From IMG/VR virus record IMGVR_UViG_2740892487_000005, positions 1 to 44,830 of that record: a DNA stretch of 44,830 nt. The stretch is one strand, 5' to 3'. The notes under the pieces were generated by a model. That model was not told where the DNA came from. It saw only the letters and a list, made by a program, of their open reading frames with translations, and made no database searches. This document shows positions 8,634 to 42,000 of this stretch, piece by piece (positions within the stretch are counted from its first letter, which is position 1; the number at the start of each line of letters is the position of its first letter). Origin of the DNA: a virus (taxonomy: Duplodnaviria; Heunggongvirae; Uroviricota; Caudoviricetes). The translations under genes and the position numbers were made by a program.

Positions 8634-9049
8634 CCCCTTACCCTCTGTCGTTACCCGCTGATGCGGGAGAAATGCTTTGGCTATGTGGTAGGTGGGAGAC
8701 CCATTTCGACCCGATTCGGCCTACTTATCTTCGGCAATAGCTCCTCGGGCCTCGCCGCTTTACGTGCGACATATTCCCGTCCATGAACCCTTCACCACAT
8801 CCCATAACATTCCCTGTATTGGTCAGCGCCAACTCCCTGCCAGTGTTGCCCGTTCTCACGCCGTTCTCGCTCTCGCGCGGGGATACTCTCTCACCGACCG
8901 GATCGCACCCGGTGATACAGCACGTTTACGTGTAGGGGTCTTAACAGGTCATTGACGCTGTAAATCTGCATGTTGTTAAAAAGCAGGCGACTTGCTGTCC
9001 GCCGCTGGCTAACTTCGCTCAGCTGTCGATGTTTCGTTTCGATGGGGTA

Positions 9050-9127
9050 AATTTAGCGTGATGCTAAATTATGCGCAATAGCAAAATGCTAAATTGTTGA
9101 ATGGTTTTATTTAGCGTATTGATTAAT
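9050..9127. promoter_or_regulatory. Putative OL/PL operator-promoter region
   Basis: Three sites built on inverted half sites TTTAGC-N5-GCTAAA (e.g. 9052-9068 TTTAGCgtgatGCTAAA) downstream of the cI terminator. Confidence 0.5.
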
Positions 9128-9162
9128 AAGCGATTAAAAATTTACAGCGAAGGAATTCGGGA

Positions 9163-9190
9163 CGTAAAAAAGCCCGCGCGATGGCGGGCT
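9163..9190 (-). terminator. Intrinsic terminator downstream of cI
   Basis: Stem GCCCGC/GCGGGC with 6-nt loop followed by a U-run on the minus-strand transcript. Confidence 0.6.
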
Positions 9191-9209
9191 TGAGGGGTTT
9201 TGCGTGAGG

Positions 9210-9887
9210 TTATGGGATGTTTAGTATTTTGGCATCAACCACAACGCCGATGATTTTGCAGTTTCCATTAATTTCTAGCATTGGATATGCGGGGTTAAGG
9301 GGCTTTAGGAAGCGTCTGCCGGCATCGATTACAAGCTTCTTAAAGGTCGCTTCGTTATCGCCTTCTAGCTTCGCGACAACCAGCTTTCCGTTGCGCGGCT
9401 CGACTTCAGGATCAACAAGTATCGCTGCTCCCTCGGGTATGCTCAGTCCAGCCGGGGAGGTCATAGAATCCCCTTTAACGTCCAGCCAGAATGAATCTTC
9501 TGAGCAGTCAACAGTCGTGTCATACCAGCGATCTATCGCTCTTCGGTGATAAGGTTCTACAGCTTCCATCCATTGCCCCGCGCTTACCCAGCTGATTACA
9601 GGATAACTTCCTTTTGTCTCGTTCAGTCCTCGAAATGCAACGTTCGAAGGTTCTTCACTGGCGTGTAAAACATCCATCCAGCCAAAAGGCAGATCAAGCG
9701 CAGTTTCAATTTTGCGAGCCATCTTATCGCCGATATTGCGATGAGGGTTTGGTCCCAGTAGCTGGCTAAGCGCAGCCGGACTTGTCTCGATGAGCTCGGC
9801 AAACTGCGCTTTGGTCATTCCAGACTCGTGCTGACGCTTCTCGTACAGCGCTTCCAGGTTGGCTTTTCTGATTTCTTTATTTTCCAT
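9210..9887 (-). CDS. cI: CI-type repressor (N-terminal HTH, C-terminal S24 LexA-like peptidase domain)
   Basis: ORF 9210..10004; probable start at ATG 9887 (MENKEIRKANLEALYEKRQ…). Contains HTH and a GDSM…K self-cleavage-type domain. Divergent from cro across the operator region. Confidence 0.9.
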   Translation of the reverse strand: MENKEIRKANLEALYEKRQHESGMTKAQFAELIETSPAALSQLLGPNPHRNIGDKMARKIETALDLPFGWMDVLHASEEPSNVAFRGLNETKGSYPVISWVSAGQWMEAVEPYHRRAIDRWYDTTVDCSEDSFWLDVKGDSMTSPAGLSIPEGAAILVDPEVEPRNGKLVVAKLEGDNEATFKKLVIDAGRRFLKPLNPAYPMLEINGNCKIIGVVVDAKILNIP

Positions 9888-9904
9888 ACCTGCATTGTTA
9901 CTGC

Positions 9905-9971
9905 TTTTAGCAAAATGATAAATGTGCAAATTGCTAAATGATGCTTGCGTAGTATTTAGCATAACGCTAAA
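9905..9971. promoter_or_regulatory. Putative OR operators with PRM/PR between cI and cro
   Basis: Three sites related to TTTAGC-N5-GCTAAA, including a perfect palindrome TTTAGCataacGCTAAA at 9954-9970, in the 116-bp divergent intergenic region. Confidence 0.55.
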
Positions 9972-10003
9972 CTCCAAATCAAACGACTCACCCGGAGACA
10001 CCA

Positions 10004-10237
10004 ATGAGCACTGAACTACACCGCTGGCGCAAGGCCGCCACTACCGACGAATGGGCGCAGCTCGCAAAGTTGGCTAACACGACGCCAGGTTACCTGGACC
10101 AGATCGCCTACGGAAATCGCCGGGCATCTCCAGAAATGGCATCTGCTATCGAGAAAGGCACGAAGAATTTTCACCGCCAGGCTCCGGTCCTAAAAGAAAG
10201 CCTGGTATTCGCATCGCCGCGTGATACTGCGGCCTAA
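10004..10237 (+). CDS. cro: Cro-like transcriptional regulator (YdaS-type HTH)
   Basis: 77-aa ORF divergent from cI, first gene of the rightward operon. Confidence 0.7.
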   Translation: MSTELHRWRKAATTDEWAQLAKLANTTPGYLDQIAYGNRRASPEMASAIEKGTKNFHRQAPVLKESLVFASPRDTAA

Positions 10238-10254
10238 CCACGAAAGGGAAAGCA

Positions 10255-10800
10255 ATGCATTCACTTGCGTATCAACAAGGTAACAAATTTTCGCCAGCGG
10301 CGATGATTTACCAGAATCGCCGGGAGCGAGAATCCTCGGCGTTAAATATCGATGGGATCCGCGCAGCAGTACGCGCCTGGGCAGCTGATTGCCGCAGTCG
10401 TGAATTTGTCGCCGCGCTGATCGTGGAAGAGTGGCGGGCGTCCGGCGGAACCGGTCTGGATATCCCGACTGACTCGCACCGCCAGATGCAGAAAGTGTTT
10501 CGATGGATTGATGGCGATACCGAATACGCCGCCAACAACATTCGCCAGCTGGCCCCGGCAATCATGTCGGTCCTGCCGCTGGAGTACCGAAACCGTCTGG
10601 CGCCGCAGAACGACACGATGTCGCTGATCGCCTCTGCGATGAAAGAGTGTGCCGAGGCTAAACAGGCCGTGCTGCTGGACGCTCCAGAGCATCAGAAGCT
10701 CAAAGAGGTAAGCGAGGGTATAGCGTCGCTGTTCCGCCTCATGCCGGAGCAGGTAGGACCGCTGATGACGATGGTTACATCGATGCTGGGGGTTATATGA
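10255..10800 (+). CDS. CII-like / YdaT-family regulatory protein
   Basis: 181-aa ORF immediately after cro, in the position of cII/YdaT of Rac-like prophages; family assignment from memory. Confidence 0.45.
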   Translation: MHSLAYQQGNKFSPAAMIYQNRRERESSALNIDGIRAAVRAWAADCRSREFVAALIVEEWRASGGTGLDIPTDSHRQMQKVFRWIDGDTEYAANNIRQLAPAIMSVLPLEYRNRLAPQNDTMSLIASAMKECAEAKQAVLLDAPEHQKLKEVSEGIASLFRLMPEQVGPLMTMVTSMLGVI

Positions 10801-10885
10801 GAGGCACAAGAAAAGAAAAAGCCCTTGAAGCGGTAACTTCAAAGGCCCTTATCACACTGTGTTACGGCAAGTAACGGGAGTAAGT

Positions 10886-11794
10886 ATGTCAAACACCGCT
10901 GAAATAATCAATTTCCCAAATAAAACCGAACAACCGGGAGGTCGTATGGCCGACCTGTCGAACGGGTATACCAAGGTCGCTAACGAGATCCAACAGCTTA
11001 AGCCTCGCCTGAGACTGTCAGGCCGGGAATGGCAATGTTTTGAGGCGGTGATCTGGCTTACCTACGGCTGGAACAAGAAACAGGACCGCGTGACAAATAC
11101 GGTTATTGCCGAGCTTACGGGCCTGAGCGATACGCATGTATCGGACGCGCTTAAGTCTCTCGCAGAACGCAAAATCATCTTTTCACAGAAGCAGGGCATG
11201 ATGAAAATCGTCGGTGTAAACACTGACCTTTCAGCATGGATTTTAGACAAACCGGAAACGGGAAGAAAATTCCCGAAAACGGGAAAATCATTCCCGAAAT
11301 CAGGAATAACCTTCCCGAAAACGGTAGACACCCAATACAAGAACAAGAACAGTATTAAAAGATCTTCGTCCGAGAATTCTGACGAATCCTCTGACGCACG
11401 TCTGAAGAAATTTTTATCAACTCATCCTGAAGCTGCGGTCTACACACCATCCGGTGCGAAGTGGGGCTCTGCTGAAGACCTCGAGACAGCTAAGTGGATT
11501 TCCTCCAGGGTGAAGCTGATTAACCCAACCTGCAAAGCCCCGGACATGACCTCCTGGTCTAACACTGTTCGCCTGATGCGCCAGATAGACAACCGGTCGC
11601 ACCAGGACATCTGCGCGCTGTATGACTGGGCTAGCAAACACCACTTCTGGCAGACCAACATCCTGAGTCCCGAAAGCCTGCGTAAGCAGTGGGACAAGCT
11701 GACAATGCAGTGTAACGCCGGAGGTGAGCAGCGCGCTGTCAAGCCAGATCTGGACTTCAACAACACTGACTGGGCCTATGGGGTGATCCGATGA
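10886..11794 (+). CDS. O: Replication initiator protein O (iteron-binding)
   Basis: ORF 10859..11794 with start at ATG 10886 after GGGAG. Iterons are embedded in the coding sequence (repeated FPKTGK peptide); followed by P. Confidence 0.85.
   Translation: MSNTAEIINFPNKTEQPGGRMADLSNGYTKVANEIQQLKPRLRLSGREWQCFEAVIWLTYGWNKKQDRVTNTVIAELTGLSDTHVSDALKSLAERKIIFSQKQGMMKIVGVNTDLSAWILDKPETGRKFPKTGKSFPKSGITFPKTVDTQYKNKNSIKRSSSENSDESSDARLKKFLSTHPEAAVYTPSGAKWGSAEDLETAKWISSRVKLINPTCKAPDMTSWSNTVRLMRQIDNRSHQDICALYDWASKHHFWQTNILSPESLRKQWDKLTMQCNAGGEQRAVKPDLDFNNTDWAYGVIR
11252..11323 (+). repeat. Origin iterons (about 4 copies of TCCCGAAAACGG-like repeat) inside O
   Basis: Direct repeats ccggaaacgggaag / ttcccgaaaacgggaa / ttcccgaaatcagg / cttcccgaaaacgg, followed by an AT-rich stretch. 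Confidence 0.7.
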
Positions 11795-12480
11795 AATCTC
11801 TTGCAGAGCAGATGCGTAACCACGACCGCGAGCAGATGAGCCGCATGGCCCATAACCTGCCAGAGCAGTACCAGGAGTGCGCGCCGGTCGAGCAGGTGGC
11901 GCAGGTATTCAACAAGCTGTTCAACGAGCTGCGCGCCGCGTTCCCGGCCAGCATGGCGAACTTCCGCACCCAGGAAGACCTGAACGAATTCCGCCGTCAG
12001 TGGCTGCTGGCGTTTCAGGAGAACGGGATCCACACCATGGCTCAGGTCGATGCCGGCATGCGCATTGCCCGCCGCCAGGAGCGCCCATTCCTGCCGTCGC
12101 CGGGCCAGTTCGTCGCCTGGTGCAAGCAGAGCGGCGGCGCGCTGGGCGTCAACGTTGACCAGGTGATCGCCGAGTACTGGGAATGGCGTAATCGTTCGTT
12201 CGAATTCATCTCCAGCGAGCAATTTCCATGGTCGCAGCCGGTCATGTACCACATTTGCGTAGAATTGCGCCACCGCAGCACCGAGCGCCAGTTAACGCAT
12301 GGTGAACTGGCACGCGAGGCAGGCGATCTGCTGGACATGTGGGAAAGGCGCGTCACCGAGGGTAAGCCAGTGCCGCCGGTACGCCGGGCTATTGCCGCAC
12401 CAGCTGCCGAGCAAGGGCCGACGCCGATCCAGCTGCTGCTGGCCAAGTACAACCGCAACAAGTCGAACGGGATGGTGTGA
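11791..12480 (+). CDS. P: Replication protein P (DnaB helicase loader)
   Basis: 229 aa with strong resemblance to lambda P (…REQM.R.A.NMPEQY…FPAS.AN…RRQW.LAF.ENGI.TM.QV.AGMR.ARRQ.RPFLPSPGQFVAWC…). Confidence 0.9.
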   Translation: MKSLAEQMRNHDREQMSRMAHNLPEQYQECAPVEQVAQVFNKLFNELRAAFPASMANFRTQEDLNEFRRQWLLAFQENGIHTMAQVDAGMRIARRQERPFLPSPGQFVAWCKQSGGALGVNVDQVIAEYWEWRNRSFEFISSEQFPWSQPVMYHICVELRHRSTERQLTHGELAREAGDLLDMWERRVTEGKPVPPVRRAIAAPAAEQGPTPIQLLLAKYNRNKSNGMV

Positions 12481-12481
12481 C

Positions 12482-12826
12482 ATGAACATAACAATTCGTG
12501 GGCAGATTCTTGCAGCCCTGCGTAATAACCCGGGCCTGAATAGTGCTCGCATTGCCACCATGATCGGCATGACCACCAAAAAGATTTCCGGCCCGTTAAG
12601 TACGTTGTTTGCAGACGGCCTGATCGAGTTCGAAGGCAAGCACGGACAGCGGCTTTATCGGCTGACCGATTACGGCATGAAATACGCACCAGAAACAATC
12701 CCGGCTATGCCGAAGGGAAATTCGAAGCTGGTGCAGCGTACAGAGGCAAACGTGATCTGCCAGGAGTGCCGCAACAGCGCGGCGATGAGAAGGGTATTGA
12801 TGGTTTGGGGGAGGGTAGGGGTATGA
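12482..12826 (+). CDS. Hypothetical winged-helix-like protein
   Basis: Start at ATG 12482 overlapping the P stop (in-frame part of ORF 12299..12826). Confidence 0.5.
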   Translation: MNITIRGQILAALRNNPGLNSARIATMIGMTTKKISGPLSTLFADGLIEFEGKHGQRLYRLTDYGMKYAPETIPAMPKGNSKLVQRTEANVICQECRNSAAMRRVLMVWGRVGV

Positions 12827-13212
12827 GCAACATCGACAAACGTGGATTACGGGAAGCAGCGGAGAAGGCGACGAAAGGCCGGTGGGCTGTTGAGTTCGAC
12901 GATGAGATTTACTCCACTGACGGCGTGAACCATGAGCAAATAGCCATGGTATTCAGTGAAAACGAAGCGCGTGATGCTGCATTTATCGCCGCAGCCAACC
13001 CCGCCACCGTGCTGGCGCTGCTGGCATCGCTGGAAGCCGCAGAGAAGCGAATCGCTGAACTGGAAGCGAAGCTCGATAGCGCAGATAAATTGCAAGATAG
13101 CGCATTTCGTCATGGTCTTCAGCATGGCTTCAGTTTTGGTCAAACGGATAATCAGGCTGGATTTGAAGAGTGCTTATCTGCATATGGAGCGCGGGGTAAA
13201 GATAATGGCTAA
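12823..13212 (+). CDS. Ead/Ea22-like family protein
   Basis: Start at ATG 12823 after GGGTAGGGG; N-terminus MSNIDKRGLREAAEKATKGRW… is typical of ead/Ea22-like proteins (from memory). Confidence 0.5.
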   Translation: MSNIDKRGLREAAEKATKGRWAVEFDDEIYSTDGVNHEQIAMVFSENEARDAAFIAAANPATVLALLASLEAAEKRIAELEAKLDSADKLQDSAFRHGLQHGFSFGQTDNQAGFEECLSAYGARGKDNG

Positions 13213-20879: not shown

Positions 20880-21481
20880 ATGAGCAAACCGGACTGGGAG
20901 GCTATTGAATCGGCTTACCGGGCCGGAGTGATGTCCCTTCGCGAAATAGCATCGCAGCATGGCATCAGCGAAGGTGCTATCCGTAAGCGTGCCAAGCGTG
21001 ATGAATGGTCACGTGACCTCAACGCGAAGGTGAAAGAGCGCGCTGACGATCTGGTACGCAAAGCGAGGTACGCAAGCAGGTACGCAGCGAAACGGTACTT
21101 TCTGAGCGCGTACTAATCGAGGCCACTGCCGAGGTAATTGCCACAGTACGCATGGAGCACCGCGGCGACATCCGCCGGGCGAGGACTCTTGCGAACGCAC
21201 TGTTTGATGAGCTCGAGGCTGAGTGCGCAGACGTTGAGGCGCTGCGTACCTTGGGCCAAATGATGCTGTGTCCAGATGAGAACGGGCGTGACCGGCTGAA
21301 CGAGCTTTACCATGCCATCATCAGCATGCCCGAGCGCGTGAAGTCGATGAAAGCGCTGAGCGAGACGTTGAAGAATCTGATTGGCCTCGAGCGGCAGGCC
21401 TACAGCATGGACGAAGGCGAAAAAGATAAGGTCGTTGACGCGCTGTCTGACCTGATGGATTCGCTCTCTCAGGGGGCGTAA
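20880..21481 (+). CDS. Terminase small subunit; split by an indel in this sequence
   Basis: ORF 20880..21116 (HTH-type N-terminus MSKPDWEAIESAYRAGVMSLREIASQHGISEGAIRKRAKR) continues in ORF 21152..21481 after a one-base deletion near 21063-21066. Confidence 0.7.
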
Positions 21482-33979: not shown

Positions 33980-36892
33980 ATGGCAAAAGAACAAAATGCT
34001 GGCAGCGTCGTCTATACGGTAAGCGCTGAGATAGAACCCCTACTGATTGCTGGTAAGCAGGCCATTGATGTTCTGGATAAGCTGGATGCAGCCGCTCAGC
34101 AGTCTGGCAAGGGAATGGATAGCCTGGACCAGAGCACATCCCAGACCGGATCGGCGTTCAACGAACTGGCTGGATATGCCAATTCAATGGATAACCAACT
34201 GCGTAAACTGAACACCAATGTAAGCGGCATAGCTCGCGCCATGGAAGAAGCTCGCAGCGGTACCGGGGGAGCTAACAGCGAGTTCAATCGTGCTGAATCA
34301 ATCATTGAGGCATTGGGTAACCAGCTGGCGATACTGGACGAGGCACAGGAGAATGGCGCTCGCAGCGCTGCAGTGTTGGCAGCCCAGTTACGCGCCGGGT
34401 CTAAAGCCACCGATGAAGAAAAGCAGAAAATTGGCGAGCTGACAGGCCGTCTATACGATATGAAAACCAGTGTAGATGCTGGTTCAAAAGGTCATGGAAA
34501 CTGGAAAAACAGCATGCAGCAAGCTGGCTACCAGGTGCAGGACTTCATCGTTCAGGTTCAGGGGGGGCAGTCTGCGCTGGTGGCCTTCGCTCAGCAAGGC
34601 TCACAGCTTGCTGGAGCTTTTGGTCCAGGAGGCGCGGTAGTAGGTGCTGTTCTTGCGCTAAGCACGGTTGTAGCAGGGGCGCTTATAACATCTTTGAACG
34701 GCGGAAAGTCTGCCATGGATGCGCTGAAAGATGCAGCCGAGGCGATGGATAAAGTCATTACTATTTCTCAAAATGGTGTGGCTGCGCTGTCAGATAAGTA
34801 TGCAATGCTCGCTAAAACTAACGCAGAAGCAGCGACCATTCTCCGCAATCAAGCCATCATTGAATATAATTCAGCTGTTTCAAAGATCCCGAAGGCTATT
34901 GGTGATGCGGCGGCTTCGGTAATTGATTTTGGCGATAAAGCTCTCAGCGCTTTTTCAGGTGGTTATGCATCAATTAAAGGTTTTAGTGACCGACTTGCCT
35001 CGCTGAATATCACCACTGATGACTACACAGAGGCAATGAAGCAGGCTTATGGCGCTGGGCAGGCCTTCCAGGCTACAGCGAGTAGCATCGGCAATACCGT
35101 TGGCTCAGTTGCGAGTAAGTTCGCAATCTCTGAGCAAGCTGCCTTTAAGCTTGTTAAACAAATGGATGAAGTGCAGCGGACCAAATCCACAGAAGCACTT
35201 CAAAGATTGGTCATAGAATTACAAAACACCAAAAGCTCATCAGATAGCGGAACTAACGCGATTATCGAGTTTTTGAAACCACTAACGGAATTAGTTGGTG
35301 CGGCTGGGATGGCAAAAGTCAACTTGGCCGGTATGAACCTTGAGATGGATAATCTCACCGCTGGCCAGAAAAACCTTATCAAGCAGACAGAGCGCAACTT
35401 AGCACTGTCAAAATTGCAGGGTGAGGAGCGAGTGCGACTGCAGGCGCAATACGCAGCTGAGGATGCAGGGTTTGCTAAAGACGACCCGCATGCTAAGCAG
35501 ATGGAGCAGGATGCAGCAGCGACCTACCGTAACACCCAGGCACAGAAAACCTTCCAATCTGAGCGGAAGAAGGGAGTCTCGCAGGCTGAATCCATTGCTC
35601 AGAAACTGGCAAATCTGAAGCAGCAGGCAGAACTGGCTGCCGGGTCGACGCAACAACTCAGCCGCGAGCAGGCCATTCTCACCGCCCAGCAATCTCTGGG
35701 TGCAGCAGCAACTCAAAAAGACCTCGAACTTGCCGGTCAGTATGCCGCTGCAAAATGGGATACTGCCAACGCGCTCAAAGCCCAGGCCGCCGCCGAGAAA
35801 CTCCTGCCGGAAACGCGCGAAAACGCCAGCTATAAGCAGGATGTTCAGGATCTGAATACTGCCCTGACCGCGAAGAAAATCAGTCAGGAACAGTACAACG
35901 AAACCGCAGAACGACTGGAGGCGACGCACCAGACCAACCTCGCCAAAATCCGCGCTCAGCAGGCGGTAACGCCCCAACAGGAGGCGGCTGGCACTGTTGA
36001 CCCGGTGCAGCAACTGGCGAACGAGAACGCGCGTAAGCTGGCGCTGATTCAGCAGTACGAGCAGCAGGGCGTATTAACCCACCAGAATGCGCTGGCGCTG
36101 CGAGCTGCTGCTGATACAGAGTACGAGCAGGCGCGCATCGCTGCACAGTGGGAGATTTACCGTAATCAGAGCACTGGCAATGAACTGCTGGCCACCTCGC
36201 TGGAAGGCCTGCAGAGCGGGGCAACCAATGCCCTCACTGGATTAATCAACGGCACCCAGAGCCTGCAGGAGGCAATGGCTAACGTTGGCTCGACCATCAT
36301 CAACAGCGTGATCGGCAGCCTCGTAGAAATGGGCATGCAGTGGGTTAAAAATCAGGTGATGGGGCAGGCAGCGGCGGCAGCCTCTCTGGCATCTACCATG
36401 GCGCAGGCAACTGCTGCAGCATCAGCTTGGGCGCCGGCAGCAATGAGTGCGTCGATCGCCACGTACGGCAGCGCCGCTGCTGTTGGTCAATCGGCTTATG
36501 CAGCCTCTCTTCTGTCAGCCAAGGGGTTAGCTGTCGCCGGTGCCCGCGAACACGGCGGGCCGGTCTCGGCCAGCTCCATGTACCGTGTGGGCGAAGGTGG
36601 CAAACCTGAGATTTTCAAAGCCAGCAATGGTAGCCAGTACATGATCCCCGGCGATAACGGTCGCGTCATCAGTAACCGCGATATTGGCGGTAGTGGCGGT
36701 GGGTTCAATTACAGCCCGGTCATCCATGTAAACGGTGACCCGACAGAGCAGCAGCTTGCCATGCTGGAGGCTGCAGTTAAGCGCGGGGCGCAGCAGGGAT
36801 ATTCCATGGCCGTCAGCGACGTCGCCAGTGGCAAAGGTAAGCTCTCCAACGCTCTGACCAACAACTTCAACACCAGTCAACGCCTCACATAA
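33980..36892 (+). CDS. Tail tape measure protein
   Basis: 970-aa Ala/Gln-rich, largely helical protein, between the tail chaperone position and the distal tail genes. Confidence 0.9.
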   Translation: MAKEQNAGSVVYTVSAEIEPLLIAGKQAIDVLDKLDAAAQQSGKGMDSLDQSTSQTGSAFNELAGYANSMDNQLRKLNTNVSGIARAMEEARSGTGGANSEFNRAESIIEALGNQLAILDEAQENGARSAAVLAAQLRAGSKATDEEKQKIGELTGRLYDMKTSVDAGSKGHGNWKNSMQQAGYQVQDFIVQVQGGQSALVAFAQQGSQLAGAFGPGGAVVGAVLALSTVVAGALITSLNGGKSAMDALKDAAEAMDKVITISQNGVAALSDKYAMLAKTNAEAATILRNQAIIEYNSAVSKIPKAIGDAAASVIDFGDKALSAFSGGYASIKGFSDRLASLNITTDDYTEAMKQAYGAGQAFQATASSIGNTVGSVASKFAISEQAAFKLVKQMDEVQRTKSTEALQRLVIELQNTKSSSDSGTNAIIEFLKPLTELVGAAGMAKVNLAGMNLEMDNLTAGQKNLIKQTERNLALSKLQGEERVRLQAQYAAEDAGFAKDDPHAKQMEQDAAATYRNTQAQKTFQSERKKGVSQAESIAQKLANLKQQAELAAGSTQQLSREQAILTAQQSLGAAATQKDLELAGQYAAAKWDTANALKAQAAAEKLLPETRENASYKQDVQDLNTALTAKKISQEQYNETAERLEATHQTNLAKIRAQQAVTPQQEAAGTVDPVQQLANENARKLALIQQYEQQGVLTHQNALALRAAADTEYEQARIAAQWEIYRNQSTGNELLATSLEGLQSGATNALTGLINGTQSLQEAMANVGSTIINSVIGSLVEMGMQWVKNQVMGQAAAAASLASTMAQATAAASAWAPAAMSASIATYGSAAAVGQSAYAASLLSAKGLAVAGAREHGGPVSASSMYRVGEGGKPEIFKASNGSQYMIPGDNGRVISNRDIGGSGGGFNYSPVIHVNGDPTEQQLAMLEAAVKRGAQQGYSMAVSDVASGKGKLSNALTNNFNTSQRLT

Positions 36893-38675: not shown

Positions 38676-39056
38676 ATGTTCAATCCTGATAAATACCGTT
38701 CTGTCGAGTGGCAGAAGGGCGGACGCGATTACCCCGCACTGGACTGCTTTGGCATCGTCAACGAAATCAGGCGCGATCTTGGCCTGGCTCCGTGGCCTGA
38801 TTTCGCCGGAGTCACAAAGGATGATGACGGCCTCGACCGGGAGGCGCGCGGGCTGATGGCTGGCCTGACGCGATGTGAGCCTGCCCCGGGCGCGGGTATC
38901 GCCTGTTATTCAGGCTCTGTGGTGACGCACGTTGCCATCGTTGTTGAGATTGATGGCCAGCTTCGCGCCGCGGAGTGCAATCCCCGCACTAACGTAACCT
39001 TCCTGCCGCTGGCGCGGTTTGCGCGCCGCTTTGTTCGCGTGGAGTATTACCAGTGA
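38676..39056 (+). CDS. NlpC/P60 (C40) peptidase-like tail protein (gpK-position)
   Basis: 126 aa with Cys (…LDCFGIV…) and His (…VTHVAIV…) in the arrangement of NlpC/P60 catalytic residues. Confidence 0.55.
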   Translation: MFNPDKYRSVEWQKGGRDYPALDCFGIVNEIRRDLGLAPWPDFAGVTKDDDGLDREARGLMAGLTRCEPAPGAGIACYSGSVVTHVAIVVEIDGQLRAAECNPRTNVTFLPLARFARRFVRVEYYQ

Positions 39057-42000
39057 CGATCCGAATCTATCCCTCACGCCTGCCCGGCGAGCCGCTGGAA
39101 AAGCACGAACACGAAACGATGACCCTCAGCGCCTGGTTTGCGCGGAACGTGAAGGACTGGGCACCGGATCAGCAGCATCCGGTTGCGGTTGAAATCGACT
39201 GTGTCCCCGTCCCGGCGTCAGAGTGGCCACTGTGCGTTATCAAACGCGAAACCGACGTCAGGATGTATCCGGTACCATACGGTACGGGAGCAGAAATCGC
39301 GCTGTGGGTGGCCGTCAGTTTGGCTGTCGCCTCTGCTGCGTACAGCATCTACATGATGAGTACCATGTCGCAGGCAGGCGGCGGTGGTTCCCAGGCGGCC
39401 AGCGGTGACCAGATTGACCTCAACCCGGCCAAAGCGAACTCGGCGAAACTCGGTGACCCCATCCGGGAAATCTTCGGCAAATATCGCGTATGGCCTGATT
39501 ACGTCGTGCAGCCGGTGAGCCGGTTCGTCAACGAGACCAGCATGGAAACCAGCATGTTTCTGTGCGTGGGTGTCGGGGACATGGTGATTAACCAGTCCGA
39601 TATCCGGATCGGTAATACGCCAATCTCTGCTTTCGGTACGGACGTGCGTTACACCCTCTACCCGCCTGGCGCCACGGTATCCGGCGACACGCGCACTGAA
39701 AACTGGTTCAACTCACCAGAGGTCGGCAATACCGGCTCCGGTACCGCCGGGCTGGACCTGGGCTCAAGCGGCCCGGAGACGGTCAGTATTATCGCGGATG
39801 CGCTGGTCGTGTCCGGAAACTCCATCACGCTGGTTGACGTATCGTCGTCTGGGGATGAGGAGATCCCGCCGTCCTGGACGGTCGGAACGGTGATCACCGT
39901 GCTGGCACCAAACTCCTATACGGTCGTGTCGTCCGGCGGTTACAGCGTGATTTATGGCGGAGTAGAGGAACTGGCACCAGTGGTCGGCATGCCAGTATCC
40001 CTGAACTATAACGGCAACGACTACGATCTGGTGATCGCCAGCTACGCCCCTGGCGTTCCGGCGGTGCCGGGGGTAGGCGGTAGCGCCGCCAGAATCACAG
40101 CCAGTGCAGCGCCGACGACCTACGATTTCAGCACCACGCCTGTGACGTTCAGCATCAGTTGGCAGGGCACGACTTACCCGGTATCGCTGGTGACCAACTA
40201 TGTCACCATGTCAGGGCTGGTTTCCTCGATCACCTCGCAATTGTCCGGTTCCGGCCTGGTCGCGCGCGATAACAGTGGGCGGCTTGAAATTGGCGAGGCC
40301 AGCAGCCCCTATGCTGGCGGGTCCATTACGAACAGCCCGTTACCCGTTGCTGTGTTCGGTGATGCTCCGGTTAATACGGCTGGCGTGAAATCAACTGGCG
40401 GCACTGCGGAAGTGAGGGCGCACATTACCCTGGCCTACAATAGCGCCACTGGCACGCCATTCACCGGTCTGCCGGAAGGCATCCAGCGGTTCTCTCTGGG
40501 GCTGGCTGGCAATCAGTTCCGGATCACCGACGTGGACAGCCAGACGGTCACGGTTGAGAGGATTGCAGTCACCACCGGACCTGGCGGTGAGACCATCACG
40601 ACGCCAGAACTATCGTGGCCCGGATTCACTGAGCGAACCCTTCTGGACGCGACCGTTACTGGCGTCAGCGACGATTATGAATGGGTGGGGCCGTTCCTCG
40701 CCTGCCCCGACGGCGAAACCATGGACGCATTCGAAGTGAACATCAACTTCCAGAGCGGGCTGGTTCGCTACACCGATAAAGGTAACAAGCGCTCCATGCC
40801 CGTGCGCCTGGTGATCCAGTATCGCAAGGTTGGTACCACCGCCTGGCAGCAGCAGTCTCCGTTCTATTCCCGCAGCACCGAAAACCAGATTGGGTTTACG
40901 CATCGCTACAGCGTCTCACCCGGTCAGTATGAGATCCGTATGCGCCGCACTGAAACGGTTAAAGGTGGCAGCACGCGTGACCAGGTCTTCTGGCAGGCGC
41001 TGCGCTCCCGGCTGAGAAAGCGCCCCACGAAGTACGACGGAGTCACCACCATGGCGCTGACCGTGCGCACAGGGAATCGCCTGGCGGCCATGTCCGATCG
41101 CCGGATAAGTGTCACACCAACCCGGATTTACAGCGGCGGCAGAACGGCGCGGAGCATCAGCGGGGCGCTTTACCACGTCCTGGAGTCACTTGGGTTCACG
41201 ACCAGCCAGATTGATACGGCGGCAATTGACGCGCTGGAACAAACCTACTGGACGCCCCGCGGTGAGAAGTTCGACTGGGCGAGCGGTGAGAGCAAGTCCG
41301 CACTTGAGGTGCTGCAGAAAATCACCAACGCAGGTATGGGGTATTTCCTGCTGTCTGACGGGCTGGCGTCTGCTGGCCGGGAAGGGATTAAACCCTGGGT
41401 AGGCATGATCACCCCGCAGGAAACCACCGAGGAGTTGCAGACCGCGTTTAAGGCCCCGTCTCAGGACGATTACGATGGCGTGGACGTGACGTATATCAAC
41501 GGTACCACCTGGCAGAGGAGACCGTGCAGTGTCGCCTGCCTGGCAACCCTACGCCGGTGAAAATCGAGAGCTACACGCTGGATGGCGTTCTGGACGAGGA
41601 CCGCGCTTACCGCATCGGCATGCGCCGGTTGCTGGGCTACCAGTTGCAGCGCCTGCAGCACACCACCTCAACCGAGATGGATGCGCTCTGCTACGAGTTC
41701 ATGGACCGCATTGTGCTGGCCGATGACATCCCCGGCAGCCAGACACTGAGTTGCCTGATTACCGATATGACGTATGACAGCAGCAAAATCACCCTGACGC
41801 TCAGCGAGGCCCCGGACTGGTCGTTCCAAAGCCCGCGCGTGATTATCCGCCACCATGACGGGCGGGCATCGGCAATGGTTGTGCCGACACACATTGACGA
41901 CTTCACGATCTCGGTGCCGTACAGCGCCGCGCTGGAGCCGGAATTATGGGCAATGAACGATGCGTACATTGAGCCGCCGCGCCTGCTGTTCTGCTCGTCT

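Follow-up and report, generated by a model that had tools for sequence, protein, structure and literature searches.

A very probable phi80-type replication origin within the O gene of a mosaic lambdoid phage

The element at 11249-11395 of the window, by which we mean the whole 44,830-nt stretch analysed here (IMG/VR record IMGVR_UViG_2740892487_000005, positions 1-44,830; mean GC 54%), is almost certainly the vegetative (theta-mode) replication origin of a lambdoid phage carrying a phi80-type replication module. The components of a lambda-type origin are found here together, namely location in O, dyad repeats, an AT-rich stretch, a palindrome, a P gene, a proxy signal for curvature and a specificity module, and gene 15, ori and gene 14 are so nearly identical to those of phi80 that the module can be assigned to this phage type. 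As an element it is already known, a phi80-type lambdoid origin, and only its mosaic background is new; the value of the result lies mainly in annotation, since it places the origin of a mosaic (pro)phage and types its replication module. The original prediction had put four direct repeats followed by an AT-rich segment inside the O coding sequence at 11252-11370 and had read them as a lambda-type ori. These coordinates are right within a few bases, with the first unit starting at 11249 and the palindrome extending the element to about 11395, and the lambda-type reading is borne out by the Phage_rep_O and Phage_lambda_P genes, by the alignment to ori lambda and by the phi80 gp15 sites that fall on all four units.

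The core of the element is a head-to-tail array of four in-frame 16-nt units (11249-11327), with 5-nt spacers, a start-to-start distance of exactly 21 nt, the consensus TTCCCGAAAACGGGAA and an internal dyad TTCCCG-AAAA-CGGGAA (Table 1). Tandem Repeats Finder recovers it at 11252-11324 (period 21, 3.5 copies, 78% matches, score 90), where it outscores the other of only two arrays above threshold in the whole 44.8-kb window, and a separate repeat search gives an identical register, with start-to-start spacings of 21 and 21. The repeats are also significant in a formal test: at three mismatches or fewer the consensus has 3 sites in the window, all inside the array, against 0.21 expected from 100 shuffles, and 0 of the 100 shuffles reached 3. 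Moreover, the 10.5-nt periodicity of AA dinucleotides, which is a sequence proxy for curvature only, peaks at 11256 and is the strongest of the whole window (99.95th percentile); A-tracts spaced about every 10.5 nt are consistent with intrinsic curvature as in ori lambda. The stretch that follows the units (11328-11362) stands at the 2.4th percentile of the window's 35-nt windows by GC and ties for the lowest GC value within the O gene, though it is only moderately AT-rich, at 31% GC versus 22% for its lambda counterpart. A CRISPR array, which would have 24-48 nt repeats, unique spacers of similar length and a non-coding setting, was considered and rejected, as the units are 16 nt, the spacers are 5 nt and of no CRISPR-length variable kind, and the array is part of the reading frame of a conserved gene; a mobile repeat was rejected for its wrong geometry, for the occurrence of the array only once and for the same in-frame position. 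The original prediction had set aside both readings.

Table 1. Features of the replication region, with the four gp15 protein_bind sites of phi80 (JX871397) mapped onto the window
Feature	Window position	Strand	Description	phi80 gp15 site	Site mapped to window
oop-like antisense RNA (phi80 M3 RNA)	10816-10875	-	just 5' of O start; M3 RNA annotated in phi80 records		
O-type initiator (lambda O / phi80 gene 15 homologue)	10886-11794	+	302 aa; Pfam Phage_rep_O, E 6.2e-25, aa 20-118		
iteron 1	11249-11264	+	AAACCGGAAACGGGAA; 12/16 to consensus; left (outer) arm degenerate	36663-36677	11250-11264
iteron 2	11270-11285	+	TTCCCGAAAACGGGAA; 16/16; perfect dyad TTCCCG/CGGGAA around AAAA	36683-36698	11270-11285
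iteron 3	11291-11306	+	TTCCCGAAATCAGGAA; 14/16 (2 mismatches)	36704-36719	11291-11306
iteron 4	11312-11327	+	TTCCCGAAAACGGTAG; 14/16 (2 mismatches); right (outer) arm degenerate	36725-36739	11312-11326
AT-rich, A-over-T-skewed stretch	11328-11362	+	31% GC, A20/T4 on top strand; presumed strand-opening site		
imperfect palindrome around GAATTC	11365-11395	+	inverted repeat 11365-11373 / 11378-11386		
P-type helicase loader (lambda P / phi80 gene 14 homologue)	11791-12480	+	Pfam Phage_lambda_P, E 1.1e-49		

The gene that hosts the element encodes an initiator that shares 39% identity with lambda O from end to end (E 4e-65). The iterons occupy aa 122-148, directly after the Phage_rep_O domain, and the origin sits at the junction between the N-terminal domain and the C-terminal half of the protein. 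A PDB sequence search with the initiator found no relative of solved structure, giving just a marginal match (E 0.0088, aa 52-108) to a metal-dependent transcriptional regulator. Downstream, the P-type gene overlaps the O stop codon, and its coordinates equal those of phi80 gene 14 after mapping. The genes on the 5' side of O include a minus-strand repressor of the S24-peptidase/HTH type, a small ORF of the size of Cro and a phi80-type cII; this cII homologue (10255-10800, 181 aa) matches Pfam YdaT_toxin (E 2e-27) and no lambda CII family. The oop-like RNA, which has a 15-pair terminator hairpin (10817-10850, minus strand; fold z-score -4.07), belongs to the replication/cII control region; a gathering-threshold Rfam scan of the whole window gave 0 matches, oop/M3-like RNA included. 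In addition, a consensus promoter scan of 9800-12600 found no sigma-70-like site; it located neither pR nor pO and did not confirm the rightward promoter.

A 936-nt segment with the O gene and ori is 99.8% identical to phi80 gene 15 (X13065, JX871397, NC_021190), with the same start and stop, and across the iterons, the AT-rich stretch and the palindrome 146 of the 147 bases are identical. The phi80 record JX871397 annotates four gp15 protein_bind sites, which coincide with the four units of the window, and gene 15, gene 14 and M3 RNA stand in the same order in both phages. Only two bases differ over the O gene. At 11290, immediately 5' of iteron 3, the window has A where phi80 has C, a synonymous difference (TCA/TCC, Ser); A at this position is found in none of 107 related loci (see below), which have C, or G in one sub-lineage, so that the A may be peculiar to this sequence or may reflect a sequencing error. 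As A stands naturally at the equivalent position of iteron 2, the substitution is probably neutral. The second difference is at 11711, where T in the window for C in phi80 gives MQCN in place of MQRN, an Arg-to-Cys replacement in the initiator's C-terminal part.

The surrounding phage is a different matter, because close homology to phi80 is restricted to 10549-12524 (97.8%), a segment that takes in the last part of cII, the oop-like RNA and the homologues of O and P. Phi80-like patches between 13514 and 15486 are weaker (74-86%), the repressor/cro (immunity) region differs from that of phi80, and the structural half (22501-44830) is similar, at about 80-83%, to phages of Klebsiella and Enterobacter. 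Among 5,426 complete E. coli genomes, seven carry at least 80% of window 9000-13000, at about 97-98% identity, and parts of this segment are present in 262. The window is therefore not phi80 itself, and its composition is ordinary lambdoid mosaicism. Two further observations concern the window as a whole. ARAGORN found no tRNA in it, and the second tandem array, at 21053-21090 (GGTACGCAAGCGA-like, period 12, 3 copies, score 53), lies just 5' of a 109-aa ORF at 21152-21481. This second array could belong to the coding sequence of an upstream ORF that is not in the ORF list, or could be a site related to packaging.

Conservation of the element was assessed in relatives chosen solely by the N-terminal 121 aa of the initiator, with the repeats playing no part in the selection. 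These comprise 107 loci, of which 80 are viral contigs and 27 come from species-representative genomes (N-terminal identity 77-99%) of Enterobacter, Pseudocitrobacter, Buttiauxella, Izhakiella, Pantoea, Phytobacter, Citrobacter, Kluyvera, Klebsiella, Yokenella, Pectobacterium, Morganella and Xenorhabdus, together with a short contig labelled Photobacterium. All 107 carry phi80-type iterons. In the 27 genome loci the units stand at +1, +22, +43 and +64 after the domain, the exceptions being one locus with units offset by 3 nt (L029) and one with a 1-nt deletion in the second unit (L022), and they are followed by a conserved AT-rich block, ACACCCAA(T/G)AC...AACA(A/G)TATTAAAA; the ori-like stretch is likewise present in all 80 viral contigs. 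The number and phase of the units are kept in about 105 of the 107 loci, across several Enterobacterales genera plus the Photobacterium-labelled contig. Two loci depart by whole units: L078 (IMG/VR 3300013612_000006) has five, with iteron 3 duplicated, and L090 (IMG/VR 3300048929_000128) has two, iteron 1 and a fusion of iterons 2 and 4, left by a 42-nt in-frame loss; in both, the array lies just 5' of CACCCAATAC. Conservation is highest over units 3-4 and the AT-rich block, and the CGGTAG arm of iteron 4 is kept in 27 of 29 aligned relatives. As a side observation, three of the four units of a Morganella morganii locus (L031) have TTACCG...CGGTAA, with both arms changed, as have one or two units of a 569-nt contig labelled Photobacterium indicum (L033), while many loci have A at unit position 3 with no partner change at position 14. 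Compensatory change between the dyad arms (positions 3 and 14) is suggestive only, and these arm changes were not counted as covariation because they come from too few independent lineages.

A period of 21 nt is also seven codons, and the in-frame units encode a heptad repeat, PETGRKF-PKTGKSF-PKSGITF-PKTVDTQ. One could argue, on this basis, that the repeats exist only to provide a peptide linker, so that the peptide rather than the DNA would be the object of selection. Against this stands a 29-sequence alignment in which mean pairwise identity was taken separately for each codon position. At codon positions 1, 2 and 3 it is 0.88, 0.93 and 0.58 in the N-terminal domain, the normal pattern for a protein under selection, and 0.64, 0.69 and 0.47 in the C-terminal half, but 0.83, 0.89 and 0.86 in the iterons and 0.90, 0.85 and 0.88 in the AT-rich stretch. 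Inside the element, then, the third codon position is conserved as well as the first two, and since third-position identity reaches 0.86-0.88 there versus 0.58 in the adjacent domain, the DNA itself must be selected. Furthermore, a peptide repeat would call for no dyad symmetry in the DNA, yet every unit has it, and in the phi80 record the units are annotated as sites of protein binding. A linker as the sole reason for the repeats is therefore very improbable, and the synonymous-site profile that argues for an origin is a clean signature by which other origins lying within genes could be found.

Alternatively, the palindromic units, which have T-runs after them on the minus strand, could stop or attenuate leftward transcription as intrinsic terminators instead of binding the initiator. 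A minus-strand terminator scan does flag 11285-11270 (a 6-pair stem followed by TTTTCTTCCC) and 11299-11271 (iterons 2-3). However, the stems are short, the 7 matches in the region against 3.4 expected are a weak enrichment, and no leftward transcription unit ends at the array. Termination would also leave four phased copies and a conserved AT-rich block unexplained, and in lambda iterons of different sequence occupy the same place. The match over iteron 2 arises because its palindrome adjoins an A-run, and the dyad together with the A-rich spacers is probably what gives rise to such hairpin-plus-T-run matches over the iterons; a terminator in place of an origin is thus hardly to be believed. 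That the array arose by replication slippage and has no function, or that it is repeated by chance, has negligible probability, since the excess of consensus sites over the shuffled expectation excludes chance, and the variation by whole 21-nt units in two relatives (L078 and L090), as slippage might give, stands against the number and phase kept in nearly all the others and against constrained synonymous sites.

The origin and the domain in front of it appear to be inherited together. The O gene of Klebsiella phage ST16-OXA48phi5.2 (L006) has the same C-terminal half as the window (about 80% DNA identity) and a different N-terminus, and at the equivalent place (1059-1187 of that locus) it carries a different repeat, GCCGCACATGA, with (A/G)CCGCACATGA-like units at 12-nt spacing, presumably the iteron set of that O gene. 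Since this gene swaps both the N-terminal domain and the iterons while keeping the C-terminal half, domain and iterons can be regarded as one exchangeable specificity module, whereas the C-terminal half of the initiator goes with its P-type partner. The module travels as a unit among many enterobacterial prophages.

How the origin would work can be proposed by analogy with lambda, whose initiation mechanism has been reviewed (PMC5043065; PMC7466680). Dimers of the initiator N-terminal domain would bind each iteron, and the bound initiator would bend or wrap the intrinsically curved DNA into an O-some, which may destabilise the adjacent AT-rich stretch on supercoiled DNA and lead to melting. 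The C-terminal half of the initiator would then recruit the complex of the P homologue with DnaB, and host chaperones would free DnaB for bidirectional replication, aided by rightward transcription through the region. That initiator binding, unwinding of the AT-rich stretch and the start of replication take place here we infer from the phi80 annotation and lambda biochemistry. A phasing of 21 bp, or two helical turns, would in addition bring the four dimers onto the same side of the helix. It is possible, if rather unlikely, that the phi80-type initiator-origin complex has a geometry differing from that of lambda, with all dimers on one face of curved DNA; the idea arises because the seven-codon phasing is kept in about 105 of 107 loci, in contrast to the irregular 20/24/23 spacing of lambda. 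If this were true, the two-unit L090 and the five-unit L078 would form a natural series for the number of iterons that an O-type origin needs. Such a geometry would refine known biology and would not make this a new kind of element.

Compared with ori lambda (J02459 39034-39160 plus the palindrome, with iterons annotated at 39034-39118), the window matches in the position of iterons, AT-rich stretch and palindrome alike. The lambda iterons lie at aa 117-145 of lambda O, close to their place in the window initiator, and in both phages there are four dyad-symmetric iterons of the outline TCCC..AAAAC..GGGA. The order of iterons, AT-rich stretch and GAATTC palindrome aligns base for base with ori lambda; in particular, the AT-rich stretch aligns with lambda 39120-39160, the A-rich region measuring 35-40 bp in both, and a near-identical block, AAAAGAT..TTCGTC.GAGAATTCTG.CGAATCCTCTGAC, occurs in the window and in lambda, where it forms the imperfect palindrome that encloses the EcoRI site and marks the right edge of the origin. 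A P-type loader gene follows O in both, and ori lambda is intrinsically bent (PMC5043065; PMC7466680). The differences lie in specificity and spacing. The arms are TTCCCG/CGGGAA in the window and ATCCCTC/GAGGGAT in lambda, the spacing is a strict 21/21/21 as opposed to 20/24/23, and the initiator N-terminal domains are only distantly similar, which is consistent with different specificity.

Stx phages 933W and P27 have the lambda-type arrangement inside O, with an AT-rich tract and six lambda-like iterons (PMC7466680), whereas the window origin has four iterons of the phi80 sequence type. In phages HK225 and mEp237 the O gene with ori is 99.5-99.6% identical to that of the window, yet elsewhere in the genome these two phages are different mosaics. 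The same is true of phi80, which shares the origin with the window almost base for base and differs from it in the surrounding phage, immunity genes included.
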